Shown here: positions 3,937-20,206 of the stretch, one piece after another
How positions within the stretch are numbered: the first letter of the stretch is position 1
Layout: every line of letters starts with the position of its first letter
Source: an uncultured Bacillota bacterium
GTDB lineage: Bacteria; Sysuimicrobiota; Sysuimicrobiia; Sysuimicrobiales; Segetimicrobiaceae
NCBI GenBank assembly: GCA_963804645.1
Contig: CAWDRG010000019.1
Span: forward strand, 96,001 to 160,000
Direction of reading: 5' to 3'
DNA length: 64,000 bases
The notes under the pieces: generated by a model
The model's input: only the letters and a program-made list of their open reading frames with translations
Told to the model about the DNA's origin: nothing
Database searches by the model: none
Position numbers and translations under genes: made by a program

Positions 3937-5244
3937 ATGGGTGGACTGCTGATTGAGAACGGACGGGTGATCGACGGGACCGGCACGCCGCCGCGGCCGC
4001 GCGGCTGGGTGTTGACCGACGGGGAGCTCATCACCGCGGTGGGCGAGGGGACGCCCCCGGCGTCCAAGGTGCCGGACGGCGTGCGCCGGATCGACGCGAA
4101 GGGCGGCAGCATCCTGCCCGGTCTCATCAATCTCCACGTGCACATCCACCGGCGCCATCTGCACCGTCCGATGAGCCAGACGGCGTTCCGCGCCGGCGCG
4201 CGCGCGGTGGAGGCGCTGCCGGACACCCTGCGCATCCTGTGGGCCCTGCGCAACCTGTGGTGGGAGATGCAGGAGGGGGCGACGACGTTCCGCGAGATTT
4301 CCTCGAAGCACCGCATCAACCTGACGATCAAGCAGGCGATTCAGATGGGGATCTTCAAGGGCCCGCGGCTGTTCTGCTGCGGGCAGGGCGTCGGCATGAC
4401 GGGGGGCCACGGCAGCCACGGTGGCGGCGGGACGTCCGAAGCGGACGGCCCCGACGAGGTCCGGAAGGCGGTGCGGGCCGAACTGAAGGCGGGGGTGGAC
4501 TTCATCAAGGTGATGGCGTCGGCCGGGCTCGCGGCGATGCCGGATGAAGATCCGCGCATGGTGGAGTTCTCGGTCACCGAACTGCGCGCCGCCTGCGAAG
4601 AGGCCCACGCACGACACCGCCGCGTCGCCGCGCACGCGTATCCCGCGCAGGCGATCAAGAACTGTGTGCTCGCCGGGGTGGACTGCATCGAGCACGGATC
4701 CATCATGGACGACGAGACGATCGCGATGATGGTGGAGCGGAAGACCTGCTACGTCCCGACGATGACCGGCATGTACAATTTCTGGCAGCGCGAGGTTCAG
4801 TACGGCCGCAAGGATATCGCGGACACGATCCGGGCGGTGATCCTCGAGCCCCATCGCGTGAGCGTCGCGAAGTGCCACGCGCAGGGCGTGCGCATCGGGA
4901 CGGGCACCGACACCCTCGGGCAGCTCAATCAGGAGATCGAGATGCTGCACGACTGCGGGATTCCGACGATGGACTGTTTGCGGGCGGCGACGTCCATCGG
5001 CGCGGAGATCATGGGACTCGAGGACGAGATCGGCACGCTGGAACCGGCGAAGCGGGCCGACGTCCTCGTCGTCGACGGCAATCCGGTGGAGAATCTCGCG
5101 GCGCTCAGGAACGTGCGGACGGTGATCCACGACGGGTGGATCGTCGACGGGGAGACGCTGGCGGTCTTCGGCGGGGCGCACTCGCTGCGGACCGCCCCGA
5201 CCGTGGAGGCCGCCGTCGGCGCCGGGGCGGGTGGGCACGCGTAA
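3937..5244 (+). CDS. Metal-dependent amidohydrolase family protein
   Basis: ILPGLINLHVH, GVDFIKVMASAG, AAHA, IEHG, GTDT, ADVLVVDGNP; GAGGAGG RBS. Confidence 0.88.
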   Translation: MGGLLIENGRVIDGTGTPPRPRGWVLTDGELITAVGEGTPPASKVPDGVRRIDAKGGSILPGLINLHVHIHRRHLHRPMSQTAFRAGARAVEALPDTLRILWALRNLWWEMQEGATTFREISSKHRINLTIKQAIQMGIFKGPRLFCCGQGVGMTGGHGSHGGGGTSEADGPDEVRKAVRAELKAGVDFIKVMASAGLAAMPDEDPRMVEFSVTELRAACEEAHARHRRVAAHAYPAQAIKNCVLAGVDCIEHGSIMDDETIAMMVERKTCYVPTMTGMYNFWQREVQYGRKDIADTIRAVILEPHRVSVAKCHAQGVRIGTGTDTLGQLNQEIEMLHDCGIPTMDCLRAATSIGAEIMGLEDEIGTLEPAKRADVLVVDGNPVENLAALRNVRTVIHDGWIVDGETLAVFGGAHSLRTAPTVEAAVGAGAGGHA

Positions 5245-9099: not shown

Positions 9100-12024
9100 G
9101 TGGCTGACACGGCGGTGTCGCAGGACCTGGCCCACGATCTCCGGCGGCGCATCCGGGGCGAAGTCCGCTTCGACGCGGTCTCGCGGGCGCTCTACAGCAC
9201 GGACGCCAGCATTTACGAGATCGAACCGATCGGCGTCGTCCTGCCCCGGGACGCGGACGACATCCAGGCCGTGCTCGAGATCACACGCCGGGCGGGCGTC
9301 CCCGTGCTGCCGCGCGGCGGCGGGACGAGCCTCGCCGGCCAGACGGTCGGCCGGGCCGTGGTCATGGACTGCTCCAAGTACATGAACCGCGTCCTCGAGG
9401 TGGACGCCGACGCCGGGTGGGCGCGCGTGGAGCCCGGTATCGTGCGCAACGAGCTGCTGGCGGCCCTAGCGCCGTTGGGGCTGATCTTCGGGCCCGAGAC
9501 GTCCACCAGCAGCCGCGCGACAATCGGCGGGATGATCGGGAACAACTCCTCGGGATCGCGGTCGCTCGTGTACGGCAAGACGGTCGACACGGTCACCGCC
9601 GCCCGCGTCCTGCTCGCCGGCGGCGAGCCGCTCGCGTGCGCGGCGCTTGACGCGGAGGACGCCGCACTGCGCGCGCTGGGAGACGGCGCGGAAGGCCGGA
9701 TCTACCGCGAGGTGCTGCGGATCGTCGCCGCCACGCGGGAAGAGGTCGCCCGCCGGTTCCCCAAGGTCCAGCGCAGGGTCGGCGGCTACAACCTGGACGA
9801 GTTTCCGCCCGGCGGACCGGTGAACCTCGCCAAGCTGCTCGTCGGCTCCGAGGGGACCCTCGGCGTGGTCGTGGAGGCGACGGTGACGCTGGCGCGCCGG
9901 CCCGCGGCCACAGCACTCGCCGTCTTTCAGTTTGACGACATCATCCCGGCGCTGGAGTACACGCCCGAGATTCTCGAGACCCAGCCGACCGCGGTCGAAC
10001 TGACCGACAAGTTCATCCTCGACATGGCGCGCCAGGCGCGCGAGCACCGCCACCGGCTGACCTTCGTCGACGGCGACCCCGGCGCGATCGTGGCCGTGGA
10101 ATATGCCGGCGACAGCCCGGAGGCGCTGACCGCCAAGCTCGACGCGCTCGAGGTGCGGATGCGCCGCGCCGGGTTCGAGGGCCCGATGCGCCGGATCACC
10201 GAGCCCGGCGCCCAGTCAAACCTGTGGGCCGTGCGGGAGGCCGGGGTCGGGCTGCTGCTCGGGATGAAGACCGCCCGCAAGCCGGTCGCGTTCGTCGAGG
10301 ACAGCGCCGTGGGGCCCGCGCGGATCGCCGAGTACACCCGACGGTTTCGCGAGATCGTCCGCCGGCACGGCACCGAGGCGTCGTTCTACGGGCACGCGAG
10401 CGTCGGGCTGCTGCACACCCGGCCGATCCTGGATCTGAAGCAGGCCCGCGACATCGAGGAGATGCGGGAGATCGCGGGCGAGATCGCGGACCTGGTCCAA
10501 GAGTTTGGCGGGGCGCTCAGCGGCGAGCACGGGGACGGGCTCTCGCGCGGGGCGTTCATGGAGCAAATGTTTGGCTCCGAGCTCTACCAGGCGTTCCGGG
10601 GGATCAAAGCCGCGTTTGATCCCGAGGGACTGATGAACCCCGGCAAGATCGTCGGGGCTCCGCCCATGACTGAGTCGCTGCGGTACGGCCCGGCCTACCG
10701 CGCCGTCGTGCCGGCGACGATCCAGGATTTCACCCGGGACGGCGGCTTTGCCAACGCCGTCGAGCTGTGCAGCGGCGTCGGCGCGTGCCGGAAGCAGCGG
10801 AGCGGCACGATGTGCCCGTCGTACATGGTCACGCTGGAGGAGGCGCACAGCACGCGCGGGCGGGCGGACGCGCTGCGCGCGGCCATCGCCGGACACCTGC
10901 CTGACGCGCCGCTCGTGAGCCGAGCGCTCTACGAGGTCATGGATCTGTGCATCGGCTGCAAGGCGTGCAAGGCGGAGTGCCCGAGCAACGTCGACATGGC
11001 GAAGTTGAAGCACGAGTTTCTCGCCGCCTACCACGATGCGCACGGGCTGCCGGCGCGCGCCCGGCTGTTCGGGGGCGTCGCGGCGATGGGCCCGCTCGGC
11101 TGCGCCACCGCGCCGCTGTCCAACTGGGTGCTGGCGAGCCCGCCGGTGCGGTGGGCGCTCGACCGCGTCCTCGGGGTGGACGCGCGGCGGCGGCTGCCCG
11201 CGTTCACGCGGCAGCGGTTCTCGAAATGGTTCGCCGCCCGCCCGCGCGCGGCAGCCCCGCCGACGTCCGGCGCCGCGCCCGCGGGGCTGCCCGGCGGGGG
11301 ACGGGTGCGGCTGCTCGTCGATACGTTCACCGAGTACTACTATCCGGAGATCGGCCGAGCGGCCGTACGCGTGCTGGAAGCCGCCGGGTGCGAGGTGGCC
11401 CTCGCGGGCACGGTGTGCTGCGGGCGCCCCATGATCTCGCAGGGGATGCTGCGCGAGGCGAAGGCGCTCGCGGAGGAGAACGTCGGCCGCCTGCGCGCGT
11501 TCGCGGAGGGCGGCGTGCCCATCGTCGGGCTCGAGCCGTCGTGCGCGGCGACGCTGAAGGACGAGTACCCGGACCTCGTGCCGGGGCCGGCGGCCGAAGC
11601 CGTGGCGCGGCAGACGTTTCTGTTTGAGGAGTTTCTCGCCGCGCTCGCAGCGGCGGGGGTGCGCGTCCCCTACGCCCGGGAGGACCGCCGCGTGGTGCTG
11701 CACGGCCACTGCCACCAGAAGGCGCTCGTCGGCATCGGACCGTCCGCCGCCGCGCTTCGGGCGGTGCCGGGGTGGCAGGTCGAGCCGCTCGACTCCGGCT
11801 GCTGCGGCATGGCGGGGTCGTTCGGGGTGGAGCGCGAGCACTACGACGTGTCGCTGGCGATGGGCGAGCGCGTGCTGTTCAAGGCGGTCCGGGCGGCCCC
11901 CGCCGACGCGCTGATCGTCGCCGCCGGAGCGTCGTGCCGGCAGCAGATCGCGCACGGCACCGGCCGGCGTGCGGTGCACCTCGCGGAAGCGCTCGCCGGC
12001 GTCCTCGACGGGGGGGCCGCGTGA
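9100..12024 (+). CDS. FAD-binding, Fe-S-binding oxidoreductase (YdiJ / GlcD-GlcF fusion type)
   Basis: PRGGGTSLAGQ, GSEGTLG, SGEHGDG, CSGVGAC, CIGCKACKAECP, CCG domains (CCGRP, GCCGMAG). Confidence 0.9.
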   Translation: MADTAVSQDLAHDLRRRIRGEVRFDAVSRALYSTDASIYEIEPIGVVLPRDADDIQAVLEITRRAGVPVLPRGGGTSLAGQTVGRAVVMDCSKYMNRVLEVDADAGWARVEPGIVRNELLAALAPLGLIFGPETSTSSRATIGGMIGNNSSGSRSLVYGKTVDTVTAARVLLAGGEPLACAALDAEDAALRALGDGAEGRIYREVLRIVAATREEVARRFPKVQRRVGGYNLDEFPPGGPVNLAKLLVGSEGTLGVVVEATVTLARRPAATALAVFQFDDIIPALEYTPEILETQPTAVELTDKFILDMARQAREHRHRLTFVDGDPGAIVAVEYAGDSPEALTAKLDALEVRMRRAGFEGPMRRITEPGAQSNLWAVREAGVGLLLGMKTARKPVAFVEDSAVGPARIAEYTRRFREIVRRHGTEASFYGHASVGLLHTRPILDLKQARDIEEMREIAGEIADLVQEFGGALSGEHGDGLSRGAFMEQMFGSELYQAFRGIKAAFDPEGLMNPGKIVGAPPMTESLRYGPAYRAVVPATIQDFTRDGGFANAVELCSGVGACRKQRSGTMCPSYMVTLEEAHSTRGRADALRAAIAGHLPDAPLVSRALYEVMDLCIGCKACKAECPSNVDMAKLKHEFLAAYHDAHGLPARARLFGGVAAMGPLGCATAPLSNWVLASPPVRWALDRVLGVDARRRLPAFTRQRFSKWFAARPRAAAPPTSGAAPAGLPGGGRVRLLVDTFTEYYYPEIGRAAVRVLEAAGCEVALAGTVCCGRPMISQGMLREAKALAEENVGRLRAFAEGGVPIVGLEPSCAATLKDEYPDLVPGPAAEAVARQTFLFEEFLAALAAAGVRVPYAREDRRVVLHGHCHQKALVGIGPSAAALRAVPGWQVEPLDSGCCGMAGSFGVEREHYDVSLAMGERVLFKAVRAAPADALIVAAGASCRQQIAHGTGRRAVHLAEALAGVLDGGAA

Positions 12025-13178
12025 TGGTGGGGCAGGTGTCCAAGGAGGAAGTTCTCGGCCGGCTTGACCGGACGCGGCGGAACGCAGCGGAGCGGGGCTT
12101 CGACGGCCTCGTCGTGATCGGCCGGTCCTTTTACGATCGATGCGGGGACCTCGCCTATCTCACCAATCACTTCCCGCCGTTTCCGGCGACCGTGTTCAGC
12201 GAGACGCAGAAAGGACTGGGGCATGGCGTGCTCGTCCTGCCCGTCCGCGGCGAACCGGCGCTGGTGATCGACGGGCGGGCGTACCGCAAGGAGATGATGG
12301 TCGTCGACGAGATCGTGGCGGATACCGATCTTGCGCGGGGCGTCGTCGGGGTGCTGCGGAGCCGCGCGCTCGGGACCGCGCGGGTGGGGCTCGTTGGCGA
12401 CGACATCATGCCGATCGCGATGTACCGGATGATCACCGAGGCGCTGCCCGCACTGCGGGTGGAGCCCGCCGACGAGATCGTCCGGCGGCAGCGCATCGTG
12501 AAGAGCGCCGCCGAACAGGCGCTGCTGCGGCACGCGGCCGAGGTCTCGGACGCCGGCCTGCGCGCGGCGCTCGGGCGCGTCCGTGAGGGCGCCACCGAGG
12601 CGAAGGTGTGCGCGGCCGGGATCGCCGCGGCGATGGAGGCGGGCGCCGATTTCGTGCGCTATCTGCGGGTGCACTCCGGCGTGTACAGCTCGTACGGGTC
12701 GCGCTGGCCGCAGGCGCTGCCCCGATGCATGGAGCGCGGAGATCTCGTCGCGATGGACATCATCGGCGCCGCCGGCGGGTACCAGTTCGACGTCCTGCGG
12801 ACCACGATCGTGGGCGCGCCCGACGCCGAGCACCGTACATTTCTGGATGCGGTGGCCCGCGCGGCGGACGCGGCGGTGGCCGCCGCCCGGCCGGGGGCGA
12901 TCTGCGGCGATCTCGTCCGAACCGCCAACGGACTGCTCGACGACGCCGGCTACGGCACGCACGCGCGGACGTTCATGGGGCACGGCATCGGGCTCGAGAC
13001 CGTGGAGGAACCCTATCTCACGCCGGAGGTGACGTCCCGCCTCGAGCCGGGCATGGTGATCTGCGTGGAGCCGGGCGTGTACATCCCGGGGTGGGGCGGC
13101 GCGAGCATCGAGCATGAATTGATCGTGACCGACGGCGCCCCCGAGGTCATCACACCGACACCGGCGCGCCAGTGGTGA
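12024..13178 (+). CDS. M24 family (Xaa-Pro/creatinase-like) peptidase
   Basis: IVKSAAE, GHGIGLE, CVEPGVY, SIEH; translationally coupled to the upstream gene. Confidence 0.85.
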   Translation: MVGQVSKEEVLGRLDRTRRNAAERGFDGLVVIGRSFYDRCGDLAYLTNHFPPFPATVFSETQKGLGHGVLVLPVRGEPALVIDGRAYRKEMMVVDEIVADTDLARGVVGVLRSRALGTARVGLVGDDIMPIAMYRMITEALPALRVEPADEIVRRQRIVKSAAEQALLRHAAEVSDAGLRAALGRVREGATEAKVCAAGIAAAMEAGADFVRYLRVHSGVYSSYGSRWPQALPRCMERGDLVAMDIIGAAGGYQFDVLRTTIVGAPDAEHRTFLDAVARAADAAVAAARPGAICGDLVRTANGLLDDAGYGTHARTFMGHGIGLETVEEPYLTPEVTSRLEPGMVICVEPGVYIPGWGGASIEHELIVTDGAPEVITPTPARQW

Positions 13179-15752: not shown

Positions 15753-16739
15753 CTACTCCTGCGGCCGAATGATGATCTTGCCGAACACGTCCCGCTCTTC
15801 CAGGAGACGCTCGCCCTCCGCGGTGGCGGCGAGCGGCAGGCGGCGGTCGATCACCGGGCGCAGCTGCCCCGACTGCACCGCACCCAGCACCGCCTCGAGG
15901 TCCGCGCGGCTCCAGCCGTCCGAGCCGAGCACGGTGAGCTCGCGGGTCCACACATAGCGGAGGTCGGTCTTCGCGTCGTACCCGGAGGTGGCGCCGCACA
16001 CCAGGAGCCGGCCGCCCTTGCGCAGGCTGCGGATGCTGCGCGGCCACGTGTCGGCCCCGGTGTAGTCGACGACGACGTCCACCCCGCGCTTCTGCGTGAG
16101 CCGCCAGACCTCCCGGTCGAACTCGACGTCCCGGTAGTTGATGAGGTGGTCGGCGCCGAGGGCCGCGAGCTTCGCCAGCTTGTCCTCGCGCGACGCCGCC
16201 GCGTACACGACGCACCCCGCGAGCTTCGCGATCTGGACGCACGCGGTCCCCACGCCGCCCGCCGCGCCGAGGATTAGGACGCGCTCCATCGGCTGCAGAC
16301 CGCCGCGAGTCACGAGCATGCGCCACGCCGAGCCGTAGGCGATCGGCAGGGCCGCGGCGTCGTCGAAGGTCATCGCGTCGGGGAGCGGGATGAGGTTCGC
16401 AGTCGGCACCCGGACGTACTCGGCGAGGCCGCCGGGGATGTCCTCGCCGATCGCGCCCCCGTCGATGGCGGGATCGACCACCACGCGCTCGCCCACCCGC
16501 ACCGCCGAGTCGCCGGGACCGATCTCCGCGACCACCCCCGCGATATCCCCGCCGGACGTGAACGGCAGGGGCGTGGGCTTCCCGGGCATGCCGCGCCGCA
16601 CGAACACATCGAGGTGGTTGAGGCCGCAGGCGTGGACCTGGACGACGGCGTGCCCCGGCCCGGCGCGGGGCGTCGGCACATCCGACTCGAGCCGCAGTAC
16701 GTCGCGTCCCCCGTGTTCGTGAAAGACGACCGCCCGCAT
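15753..16739 (-). CDS. MDR family zinc-binding dehydrogenase / NADPH:quinone oxidoreductase
   Basis: ACGLNHLD, GAAGGVG, CGATSG, FGKII. Confidence 0.88.
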   Translation of the reverse strand: MRAVVFHEHGGRDVLRLESDVPTPRAGPGHAVVQVHACGLNHLDVFVRRGMPGKPTPLPFTSGGDIAGVVAEIGPGDSAVRVGERVVVDPAIDGGAIGEDIPGGLAEYVRVPTANLIPLPDAMTFDDAAALPIAYGSAWRMLVTRGGLQPMERVLILGAAGGVGTACVQIAKLAGCVVYAAASREDKLAKLAALGADHLINYRDVEFDREVWRLTQKRGVDVVVDYTGADTWPRSIRSLRKGGRLLVCGATSGYDAKTDLRYVWTRELTVLGSDGWSRADLEAVLGAVQSGQLRPVIDRRLPLAATAEGERLLEERDVFGKIIIRPQE

Positions 16740-16844
16740 GATGTCTCCACCCCGTGCGGCGGACGGCCCCGTCGGCCCGCCCGCACTGCCGCTGTGGAAA
16801 CTTCGCGGCGTGCGGGCGCATCACCTAGATAAGATGAACGAGCC

Positions 16845-17126
16845 GGCGACCCGCGTAATACCTGAATCCGGCGGCATCTGCGCAGACTTTGGAGCAAGCA
16901 CGACCTGCTCGCGGAAGCTCGCGAATTGCTTGGGCCGGTGCGATCCAAGGGACGAAATTGTGCCCTTCCAGGATAATCTACACTCCAGTGTAGATTATCC
17001 TGGCAGGGCACAATTTCGTCGTCCATCGGCCCGCCGGTGCATGTCATTGGCAAGCTTCCGCGAGCAGATCGTGCTGGCTCTAAAGTCTGGACATTTCCGC
17101 CGGATTCAGGTAATACGTGGGTTGCC
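16845..17126. repeat. Long imperfect palindrome (about 280 bp) with a 70-bp near-perfect core
   Basis: 16951-16984 pairs with 16987-17020 (34 bp, 1 mismatch); outer arms 16845-16919 and 17053-17126 are largely complementary. Confidence 0.92.
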
Positions 17127-17166
17127 ACCAGGACGGAGGCCTATCCACATACGGGGGTGCCGGCTC

Positions 17167-18275
17167 ATGGATCAGCATAGCATAGTGGTTGGTCTGGATG
17201 TCCACAAAGGGAGCATCACGGCCGCGGTCCTGCCGCCAAACGTTGCGCGGCCTCAGGAGACGTGCACGATCGAGAACGACGCGCGGGCCGTCGAGCGCTT
17301 GGTGAAACGGATCATGAAGAACGGGAATGCGGTGTTTGTGTACGAGGCGGGGCCGTGTGGATATACGCTGCACCGGCAGTTGTATCGTCTGGGCTGCCAG
17401 GCGGCGGTGATCGCCCCGGGCCTGACGCCCGTGCGTCCCGGCGATCGGGTCAAAACGGATCGGCGTGACGCGGAGAACTTGGCCCAACTCTATCGCGCGG
17501 GGCAACTCACGGAAATTCGGGTGCCCACCGGGGAAGAGGAAGCGGCCAGAGACCTCGTCCGTGCGCGCGAAGACGCCGTGGCCGACCGGCTGCGCGCCCG
17601 ACATCGGCTGAGCAAATTTCTCCTTCGTCAAGGACGGCTGTACGATGGCAAGCAAGCGTGGAGTCAGAAGCATTACGCGTGGCTCCGTCAGCAACGGTTT
17701 GAGTTGACGTTGGCCCAGCAGACGTTTGATGCGTATCTCCGCGGGGTCGAAGAAGCCGACGCCCGGTTGGCGAGTTTGACCACCCAGGTGCTCGAACTGG
17801 CGCAACGGCCGAGCTATGCGGCGCTTGTGCAAGGCCTGCGCTGTCTGAAAGGCGTCGACACGCTGACCGCGATCACACTGATTGTCGAAACACAGGACTT
17901 CCGGCGCTTTGGGCACGCCCGCGCGTACATGGACTTCACCGGCTTGGTGTGCTCCGAGAACAGCAGCGGAGACAGGACCCGCCGCGGCTCTATTACGAAA
18001 GTCGGCAACGCGCATCTCCGCCGTGTCCTGGTCGAGCGGCCTGGAGCTACTCGCATCACAACAGCAGCGGCGCGACGATCACCAAACGACGCCACGGCTG
18101 TCCGGCGGCAGTGGTGCAGATCGCCCGCCGTGCGCAGGACCGGCTTCACCGCCGCTACTGGCGCCTGACCCAGCGCAATAAGCCACGGCCAGTCGCGATC
18201 GTCGCCGTCGCGCGGGAGTTGGCAGGATTCGTCTGGGCAATCGCGCATAGCGTGTCGAGCACCACCGCGGCGTAG
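17167..18275 (+). pseudogene. IS110 family transposase, frameshifted near 18036
   Basis: GLDVHK, YEAG, KTDRRDA, SENSSG, GNAHLRRVLVE, then AAWSY...AIVAVARELAGFVWAI in another frame. Confidence 0.88.
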
Positions 18276-18484
18276 AGTACCAGGAACAGATTCCGAGGAT
18301 CGACGGACGTGTTCTGGACCTGGAGGCGAAGCAGCGGTCAGGAGCATCCTCGAGGGGTCTATGTGGCGGACAGGCTGACGTCTGTGCCGACCCACGTTCC
18401 TAGATTGAGGCAGCTCCCGACGAATCACAATCATGTGCGCTCTGCCCGCTTCGTGCGGGTAACCGCCGAATACGCATGAAAATG

Positions 18485-19690
18485 TCAAGGCTTTTCTCGC
18501 TGCCTCGTGCCGTGGCGGGTAGCGACGAAGGCTCGGTAGTGTCCCTCCGCATCTTGTAAGACCTGCCGTTCTTCAGCCGGCGTCAACGTTTGCTCGTTGG
18601 TCTTGTCCGGCTTGCGTGGACGGCCCCGTCGGCTGGGTGCGCCTGCGGTCAGCTCCACTCGACGTAGCTTGTGCGCCGTAAGACTCGGAGGCGTCCATTT
18701 GTAGTCGGTCCTATCCGCGAGCAGGTGCCAGGCCACCACCGCTAGCTTGCGCGCCACGGCGACGATCGCGATGGCGCGCCCGCGGCGAGCGCGCACACGA
18801 TCGTAGAAGGCATGCAGAGGACCGGGCACACGGATTGCGGACTGGGCCGCTTCGACCAACAGCCCACGCGCATGCGCCTGTCCCTGTCGGCTGATGTGGC
18901 CTGTATGAGCGGGTCGCTCACCGGATTGGCGCACCCGTGGATCCAGGCCCAAATAGCCGACCAACTGCGTCGGCCGCTGAAACCGTGCGACGTCTCCGAT
19001 GACAGCGAGGAGAGCGACCGACGTGATCAACCCCACACCAGGGATCGTCATCAATCGCGTCGCCTGCGGATCCGCGAGAGCGGCCTGCGCGATCCGTTGT
19101 TCGGCTAACTTGATCTCCGCGTCGACGGCGGTGAGCAGGCGGAGCGCACTATCGACTTGGTCCTTCTCTTCGCGCGGAAGCGGCACACTCGCGAGCCAGC
19201 GACAGCCGGCCTTCCCGAACAGGTCCGTGAAGGAGTGTCCAATGAGATTGCGGTGCAGCACCCCGTGAATCCGATTCCGAAGACGCGTCCGCTGCTGAAC
19301 CAGCGACTGATGATGGGCGACCTGATGGCGGAGCGCTCGTGTCACCGGATCTGGTGTCCACACAGGCGGGATAAAATCCGCCGCGAGCAATTGTGCCAAA
19401 ATTGCGCTGTCCACTCGGTCAGTCTTGACCTTGGCACTCGCGATGGCCCGCGTGCGCATTGGATTGGACACAATGACTTCACCGGCATGCTCACTCAGCA
19501 ATTCGGCGATCGCCCATGTATTCACGCTCGCCTCGAGGACGACGCGATCCGTCGAGTGCAGCGTGCGCGCAAAAGCTCGCAATGCGGCGGGCGTCGTCTC
19601 AATGCGTTGCCGTTGCTGAACCTTGCGTCCGTGTTCAAGTACGGCGACTTCAGCAAAGCGTTTGTGGACGTCCAGCCCTATCGATCGCAT
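18485..19690 (-). CDS. IS110 family transposase/recombinase (intact)
   Basis: MRSIGLDVHK, LEAS, KTDRVDS, TIPGVG, YLGLDPRVRQSG, AIVAVARKL. Confidence 0.93.
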   Translation of the reverse strand: MRSIGLDVHKRFAEVAVLEHGRKVQQRQRIETTPAALRAFARTLHSTDRVVLEASVNTWAIAELLSEHAGEVIVSNPMRTRAIASAKVKTDRVDSAILAQLLAADFIPPVWTPDPVTRALRHQVAHHQSLVQQRTRLRNRIHGVLHRNLIGHSFTDLFGKAGCRWLASVPLPREEKDQVDSALRLLTAVDAEIKLAEQRIAQAALADPQATRLMTIPGVGLITSVALLAVIGDVARFQRPTQLVGYLGLDPRVRQSGERPAHTGHISRQGQAHARGLLVEAAQSAIRVPGPLHAFYDRVRARRGRAIAIVAVARKLAVVAWHLLADRTDYKWTPPSLTAHKLRRVELTAGAPSRRGRPRKPDKTNEQTLTPAEERQVLQDAEGHYRAFVATRHGTRQREKP

Positions 19691-19699
19691 GCAGACCCC

Positions 19700-19895
19700 C
19701 TTGGGACCCAGCCGGGCACCACAACACCTACGCATCCGCGCTCGCAGCGCAACCGGGTCAGTCGCAGGGGCGGCCAGATATCAGATCGGACTCGTGGTCC
19801 ATATTCGCGACGGCCTGCCCGTTGCTGGTGGTCCCTTGTGCCCCATGGCCCGGCTCCGCTACGATAAGTCGGAACCGGGTGGGACACCTCTTTCA
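19700..19895 (-). ncRNA. Predicted bridge RNA in the left end of IS110 element 2
   Basis: Internal loop closed by GGCC/GGCC and GGAC/GTCC stems, holding two segments matching the reconstructed target. Confidence 0.65.
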
Positions 19896-20206
19896 TAACC
19901 GATATCAGAGTGATTCACCGTCGCGAACGCTTCGCTTCCAGGACCCGAATACGCCGTCCATCCTCTGGGACGACGGAGGGCCGTTCGTGGCTTGACCTAC
20001 ACGGTACTTGACAGGCTCGTTCATATCAGACCTCGGGCGCGAGGCTCCGGTGGAGGAGGTCGCGGCCGATCCGCGAATCGTGATCCACGCACCGGGACGG
20101 TTCGTGGATCACGGAACCACGACATGCACGTATGCGCGCGGGCGGGGATCGCCGTTGTCGCCGCACGCCGCCCACCCCGATACCCCAGTTCCCTGGAGGC
20201 GCCGCC

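Follow-up and report, generated by a model that had tools for sequence, protein, structure and literature searches.

Bacterial MITEs that can be set beside the element described here include MITEPye1, and the Correia and RUP elements are further examples for comparison. MITEPye1 is known from Paracoccus yeei and has been attributed to the IS1182 family. In the account given of it a MITE is recognized by small size, terminal inverted repeats (TIRs), direct repeats (DRs), the lack of a transposase gene and potential mobility (PMC11578231). ISEcp1, ISPme1 and IS1247 are members of the IS1380 family. ISEcp1 is described as producing 5-bp direct repeats and preferring AT-rich targets (PMC7527135, PMC2887853), and one of these reports records repeated use of a single target sequence (PMC2887853). 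TIMEs, as presented in PMC4133298, are non-autonomous elements with Tn3-family ends that insert in AT-rich DNA and make 5- or 6-bp duplications. According to PMC11187229, IS1111-type elements of the IS110 family carry subterminal inverted repeats of 11-13 bp, and their guide RNA is encoded in the long non-coding region that follows the tnp gene.

The window, that is the whole 64,000-nt stretch of DNA that was analyzed and from which all unprefixed positions are counted, lies on contig C19 (68.4% G+C) of a 5.3-Mb genome in 22 contigs with G+C contents of 66-70%. A preliminary description of the window had reported a hairpin of about 280 bp at the left end of an IS110 element. This hairpin is very probably a nested insertion, in which a 250-bp MITE entered the loop of a small native stem. 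The stem belongs to the left end of IS110-A, as the host is called here, an IS110-family element of the IS1111 type.

The MITE resembles MITEPye1 as described in PMC11578231 in its small size, its lack of a transposase gene and its low copy number, and also in having terminal repeats that match those of a host IS, flanking direct repeats and a long stem-loop fold. It differs in that its ends are of the IS1380 type and both of its copies in the genome lie inside another IS, at one identical 5-bp site. The full-length partner elements in the same genome are like ISEcp1, ISPme1 and IS1247 in encoding a transposase that scores above the NCBIfam cut-off, and like ISEcp1, as far as it is described in PMC7527135 and PMC2887853, in making 5-bp duplications of AT-rich pentamers. 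They differ from all three in being shorter (1,493-1,496 bp) and in coming from an uncultured high-GC soil or peat lineage; here, moreover, there is a non-autonomous derivative, and what is hit repeatedly is a hairpin loop within a different IS. TIMEs and the MITE are both non-autonomous and inserted in AT-rich DNA with short target duplications, but the MITE has IS1380-family rather than the Tn3-family ends given for TIMEs in PMC4133298, and no Tn3-type transposase is involved. IS110-A itself is like the IS1111-type elements with a seekRNA or bridge RNA in PMC11187229 in its DEDD transposase, 11-bp repeats and downstream region. Unlike the seekRNA or bridge RNA region described there, the hairpin is an insert in the short upstream end and lies outside that system. 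No IS1380-derived MITE was described in the full-text literature searched, a search that did not extend to ISfinder and is not proof that there is none. The hairpin element is otherwise an ordinary bacterial MITE in an IS-in-IS nest, and the point of interest is the repeated hits on one pentamer.

Host element IS110-A and its leader

IS110-A extends from 16825 to 20032 on the + strand and contains two nested inserts. Its limits were taken from the homology of six copies and are each uncertain by a few bp. The six copies in the genome (the window copy, one each in contigs C6, C17 and C16 and two in C21) are 99.85-100% identical outside the nested inserts. Subterminal inverted repeats of 11 bp are found at 16834-16844 and 20014-20024. 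Without its inserts the element has an upstream end of about 87 nt and a downstream non-coding region of about 330 nt. The transposase is of the DEDD/IS110 type (PF01548 and PF02371), and in copy C6, where it is intact, it matches NF033542 at 237.9 bits (cut-off 140). The DEDD transposase, the subterminal repeats and the long downstream non-coding region are those of an IS1111-type element. The transposase gene of the window copy (17167-18275, + strand) is frameshifted by a 1-nt deletion near 18035 which is absent from the other five copies and which splits the frame into two ORFs (16738-18168 and 17949-18275).

The share of the hairpin that belongs to the host IS is only the outermost 11-bp stem, formed by a left half, GGCGACCCGCG (16845-16855, + strand), and a right half, CGTGGGTTGCC (17116-17126, + strand). 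The two halves adjoin across a single TAATA in empty copies and include two G-T pairs on the + strand. The loop of this stem is the insertion target.

The native leader of 87 nt (16840-16860 and 17116-17166) is conserved in five related genomes (L009, L019-L023, L030, L031). Its 5' segment has two mutually exclusive pairings, one with the right stem half and one with the ribosome-binding and start region. The latter is preferred in the fold of the leader alignment, where one pair covaries between C-G and U-A among eight sequences, and is also used in the minimum-energy fold of the window copy. A second small hairpin in the leader differs in sequence among the relatives and keeps its pairing. 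As read from these alignments and folds, the native pairing may serve as translational control of the RNA-guided transposase.

The second nested insert is another IS110-family element, B (18473-19901, - strand, 1,429 bp), located in the right-end non-coding region of IS110-A. Its limits are given by C16, in which 18472 is joined to 19902. The transposase of B (P0003) matches NF033542 at 244.3 bits. Element B is part of the same nest and lies outside the hairpin. It is present at one identical point of IS110-A in five of the six copies, C16 being the one without it, and comprises three lineages. Besides B of the window there are copies in C6, C17 and C21 (L006, L007, L010), with identities to it of 100% in C6, 81% in C17 and 73.5% for both copies in C21. 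From its sequences this looks like repeated RNA-guided targeting of IS110-A by relatives of B, and the insertion point is possibly within the region that encodes the guide RNA of IS110-A.

Geometry and folding of the hairpin

The hairpin is real and lies where it had been reported, as all three of its arm pairs were recovered by an inverted-repeat search. The core has arms of 34 nt with one mismatch and a 2-nt loop (16951-16984 and 16987-17020, 97% complementary), in agreement with the preliminary description. The middle arm pair (16883-16938 and 17034-17089) is 56 nt long and 82% complementary, and the outer pair (16845-16874 and 17097-17126) is 30 nt long and 90% complementary. Both reported limits also held: the hairpin starts at 16845, adjoining the left subterminal repeat of the host IS, and ends at 17126, 40 nt 5' of the transposase ATG at 17167. 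What did not hold was its reading as a single unit. It is made up of the 11-bp stem native to IS110-A, the 5-bp target sequence in duplicate and an inserted element of 250 bp. The insert is a palindrome too and sits in a hairpin loop, so that it and the native stem read as one hairpin of 282 nt.

Folded as RNA, the + strand of 16830-17170 (341 nt) gave -231.5 kcal/mol. The mean of 100 shuffled sequences was -123.0 (sd 6.07; z = -17.9), and none of the 100 folded as well. The - strand of the same stretch gave -226.7 kcal/mol (z = -19.6). Both strands fold equally well, as a DNA palindrome would, and the fold is therefore uninformative on a strand-specific RNA. Across the whole hairpin there are seven G-T pairs on the + strand, four on the - strand and 13 transversions. 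Within the MITE the figures are five, four and 12, respectively, so there is no strand bias. The two + strand G-T pairs noted at the outside are those of the native IS110-A stem.

No Rfam family matched the hairpin above threshold: the best score was 34 bits, and the gathering score is 88. The matches below threshold, look-alikes of microRNAs on the core, were rejected as due to chance. A scan of 16700-17300 for promoters and terminators gave no promoter-like or terminator-like site.

Boundaries of the insert and empty sites

The palindromic MITE forms the bulk of the hairpin. It occupies 16861-17110 (250 bp, no strand assigned), which is the segment missing from the empty copies C17 and C16. 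Its left terminal inverted repeat is CCTGAATCCGGCGG (16861-16874, + strand), and the right one (17097-17110, - strand) is its perfect complement over all 14 bp. The central core hairpin with its 34-nt arms (16951-17020, no strand assigned) is the part in which pairing is kept in three members of the family. On either side of the MITE lies a TAATA (16856-16860 and 17111-17115, both + strand), which is present once at the empty site. The MITE is too short to encode a transposase, and the ORFs that cross it are long spurious frames of DNA with 68-70% GC.

The terminal 13 nt of the MITE are identical on both sides, 13 of 13, to the ends of both IS1380-family elements found in the genome (the C21 and C9 copies). 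Past these 13 nt the likeness is modest. In 34-nt windows the left end of the MITE matched the left end of the IS1380-family element at 28 of 35 positions and its right end at 25 of 35, and the right end of the MITE matched the right end of the IS at 27 of 36 positions and its left end at 24 of 36. A 7-bp duplication, GTAATAC, with ends CTG...CAG was considered and dropped, as the C9 copy shows TTCAT on both sides of ends CC...GG. Small size, terminal repeats, direct repeats, IS-like ends and evidence of mobility were thus all found, and no transposase gene.

Two of the six IS110-A copies, C17 and C16, are empty and read GGCGACCCGCG-TAATA-CGTGGGTTGCC uninterrupted. The window, C6 and C21a copies are interrupted exactly at the TAATA through which C17 and C16 read. 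In the window and in C6 the segment between the two TAATA starts with CCTGAATCCGGCGG and ends with its exact complement. Contigs from three metagenome studies (X1, X9 and X10, from peat, a bioreactor and soil) join 16854 to 17110. They skip 255 nt, which equals the 250-bp insert and a 5-bp duplication. Seven uninterrupted left ends of IS110-A relatives were found in five related genomes (two each in G004 and G006 and one each in G005, G012 and G081). These are 77-97% identical; the small stem is retained in them, and its AT-rich loop varies in length. The search for left ends in relatives covered 94 genomes; two genomes flagged as unpublished gave weak matches, and nothing rests on them.

The hairpin does not always travel with the IS110 element, a point raised by the preliminary description, as it is absent from two of the six genome copies, from the seven copies of relatives and from the contigs of three metagenome studies. 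Its remark that it did not recognize a hairpin of this length as usual for the left end of IS110 was likewise borne out. Among the origins it had listed, the one supported by the empty sites, the TAATA duplication, the IS1380-type ends and an inverted copy is insertion of a separate palindromic element in the IS. An apparent oddity is thereby removed, namely an IS110 element with a native 280-bp leader hairpin. When a palindromic MITE lands in the loop of a hairpin, the product can be mistaken for a very large native RNA structure.

IS1380-family partner elements

Contig C21 carries two identical IS1380-family copies of 1,493 bp in tandem at the TAATA of IS110-A, with the same 13 terminal bases as the MITE. 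Each encodes a 440-aa IS1380-family transposase which matches NF033539 at 278.6 bits (cut-off 180) and Pfam DDE_Tnp_1_4 (PF13701) with E = 4.6e-56. The two copies (C21 4885-7875, L006) are 100% identical and lie head to tail with only TAATA between them. This tandem could be due to a second hit on the duplicated target, to a tandem-dimer transposition intermediate or to an assembly effect.

An IS1380-family copy on contig C9 has 1,496 bp and is 70% identical to the C21 element. It has TTCAT on both sides, which sets its ends as CC...GG and its duplication at 5 bp. A relative in genome G027 is flanked by TTAAT, which gives the same length, and another, L041, has no clean duplication. Further IS1380-family fragments were seen on C19 outside the window (4037-4619 of the contig) and on C20 (about 11850-12110); these are 69-76% identical at the protein or DNA level.

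The very probable sequence of events is as follows. A MITE without coding capacity, with IS1380-family terminal repeats around a palindromic core, entered the 5-nt loop TAATA, and the insertion duplicated TAATA. We infer that the MITE was moved in trans, by the DDE transposase that this genome's IS1380-family elements encode, among them the two intact C21 copies at the same site. The length of the hairpin thus comes from the symmetry of the MITE itself, and the hairpin is not a device of the IS110 element.

Other copies of the MITE and upkeep of its arms

The genome contains two copies of the MITE, those of the window and C6, and both are within IS110-A. The C6 copy has 234 bp and is 88.4% identical to the window MITE when inverted and 73.8% identical when compared directly. 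The host IS around the two copies matches at all 35 nt compared on the left; on the right there is one difference in 1,362 nt, the single-base gap of the window transposase. In C6 the end-specific bases inside the 14-bp repeats are swapped as well, and the orientation of TAATA is unchanged. The two MITEs are probably independent arrivals, being 12% diverged and inverted relative to each other in a near-identical host IS. No source copy outside IS110-A was seen in this genome. None of 60 relatives gave a copy of the MITE; many of these are incomplete drafts, so absence is not established.

Two public collections were scanned for the terminal-repeat pattern with repeats 200-230 nt apart, and four metagenome loci and one genome locus were obtained. 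The only clear homologue among the five is L014, a 236-bp element with a truly homologous core in a 9-kb metagenome contig, with unrelated flanks and a TTATA duplication. Two other metagenome loci, L013 and L015 (245 bp), have the same 13-nt terminal repeats around unrelated AT-rich cores with their own internal palindromes, and L013 is flanked by TTTAA. As these two share the ends only, several unrelated MITE families of different organisms seem to use IS1380-type ends. L016 and L017 are uncertain cases: they are GC-rich, lack a duplication and may not be transposons.

Arm-to-arm identity was 103 of 128 positions (80%) in the window MITE, 80 of 125 (64%) in C6 and 77 of 125 (62%) in L014. Folded as DNA, the C6 and L014 elements gave z values of -3.8 and -6.5, respectively. 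Pairing is kept in all three members only at the termini and in a central core of about 30 bp. Double changes in the core occur at columns 98:153, 104:147 and 110:141 of the three-sequence alignment, which with only three sequences is weak evidence that the core pairs are maintained. The preliminary description had regarded absence from related elements with no compensatory substitutions as counting against the hairpin. This is largely what was found for the long outer arms, while the core keeps its pairing.

Alternative explanations

The boundaries, the duplication, the empty sites, the match of the ends, the inverted second copy and the homologue at an unrelated site were observed directly. 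The position of the hairpin, which separates the left end from the transposase gene and stops 40 nt short of the ATG, its extreme + strand folding and the two outermost G-T pairs, both on the + strand, are what a native structured leader or second ncRNA, controlling the transposase or taking part in RNA-guided recombination, would show. Such a native role is nevertheless given virtually no credence, as the hairpin is missing from two of the six copies, from seven copies in five related genomes and from three metagenome studies, is inverted in C6, folds equally well on the - strand, has insert mismatches divided five to four between the strands and has no Rfam match above threshold. The guide RNA of IS1111-type elements is encoded downstream according to PMC11187229, and it is downstream that the long non-coding region of the host lies. 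A guide RNA would be present in every functional copy and in a long non-coding region, whereas the hairpin is in the short upstream end. The structured leader and the cruciform used in IS110 recombination, both put forward in the preliminary description, fall together on the absence from near-identical copies, the inversion in C6 and the lack of strand bias in the mismatches. Perfect long palindromes are also a known class of assembly artefact, and no Logan contig from four metagenome runs spans the whole hairpin, so the exact sequence of the window copy rests on assembly alone. That the palindrome is a fold-back artefact is nonetheless hardly conceivable. There is a second copy in C6 which is 12% diverged and shorter (234 bp), and the 236-bp homologue has its own duplication in an unrelated 9-kb metagenome contig. 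A contig of X4 covers 16865-16975 with five substitutions and seven gaps, and clean terminal repeats with a 5-bp duplication are not expected of an artefact.

If there had been one MITE insertion only, with C6 produced by inversion through the arms and the element shared by gene conversion or by transposition of the loaded IS, no hot spot would be needed. The long inverted arms, 80% alike in the window copy, could support an inversion, no other donor copy was seen in the genome, and the 99.85-100% likeness of the IS110-A copies makes homogenization plausible. This course of events is very unlikely given that the MITEs are about 12% different in surroundings that differ at one base in 1.4 kb, and that the swapped end-specific sequences would require the inversion crossover to fall within 14 bp. 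Moreover, full IS1380 elements at the same TAATA, in C21 and reversed in peat, are separate events which inversion of a MITE does not explain. The MITE may also be supposed to have transposed in and then been co-opted, altering expression of the IS110-A transposase by locking the leader fold or by making dsRNA. The two exclusive pairings of the 87-nt leader, one of them with a C-G/U-A covarying pair, are compatible with this, insertion in the loop keeps both stem halves intact, and C6 has both the MITE and an unbroken transposase frame. As far as the predicted folds go, the balance of the two pairings could be shifted by an insert in the loop. Co-option is all the same unlikely. There is no sign that a loaded IS110-A has transposed, each copy with a MITE being unique. 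The transposase gene of the window copy is frameshifted, 16700-17300 has no promoter-like or terminator-like site, and the outer arms of the C6 and L014 elements have decayed. The preferred reading is thus still insertion of a MITE in the loop of the native stem.

Repeated insertion at one TAATA

Four occupants of the TAATA of IS110-A were found: the window MITE, the inverted MITE of C6, the tandem IS of C21 and a reversed full IS in peat. The last of these was seen in the peat-metagenome sets X1 and X4, where loose ends at 16873 and 17098 continue into the right and left ends of IS1380, respectively. The full IS in X1 and X4 is oriented opposite to that in C21. This amounts to at least four separate arrivals at one 5-bp site, as MITE and full IS each occur there in either orientation. 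As background, pentamers of A and T only occur at 13,023 positions of the genome, and TAATA/TATTA at 495. The other targets of the family (TTCAT, TTAAT, TTATA and TTTAA) are AT-rich too. No obvious flanking palindrome was present at the L014, C9 and G027 sites when these were read by eye, so a hairpin is not a general target requirement of the family.

The preference for this TAATA is an observation, and several causes may lie behind it. An AT-rich loop held open by the GC-rich palindrome is one candidate. Another is a sequence preference, which is not definable from so few sites, and a third is the survivorship of harmless insertions in a multicopy element. The repeated hits would reflect a strong preference of the transposase for an AT-rich pentamer in a GC-rich palindromic setting, the hits counted being those of the MITE and of the full IS, each in both orientations.

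A stronger proposal is that the IS1380-family transposase specifically recognizes the leader hairpin of IS1111-type elements, making the IS and its MITE specialized parasites of an RNA-guided IS. This is doubtful and is offered tentatively. If true, a MITE in the loop, where it spares the stem, could serve as a brake or a switch for the RNA-guided transposase, and IS110-A, with the three lineages of B at one point of its right end, would offer at least two further mobile elements a dedicated 'safe harbour'. Target choice in the IS1380 family, ISEcp1 included, is usually described no further than as a preference for AT-rich DNA, and a natural hot spot that is well defined and has a clear structure around it would help to show how these elements select their sites.

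The ORFs upstream of the nest in C21 had no NCBIfam match. The second IS110-A copy of C21 (1913-1966, L006) lies 50 nt past the right end of the first. It starts exactly at TAATA, without the left 35 nt, and this truncation suggests, from the position of its end, yet another event at the same pentamer.
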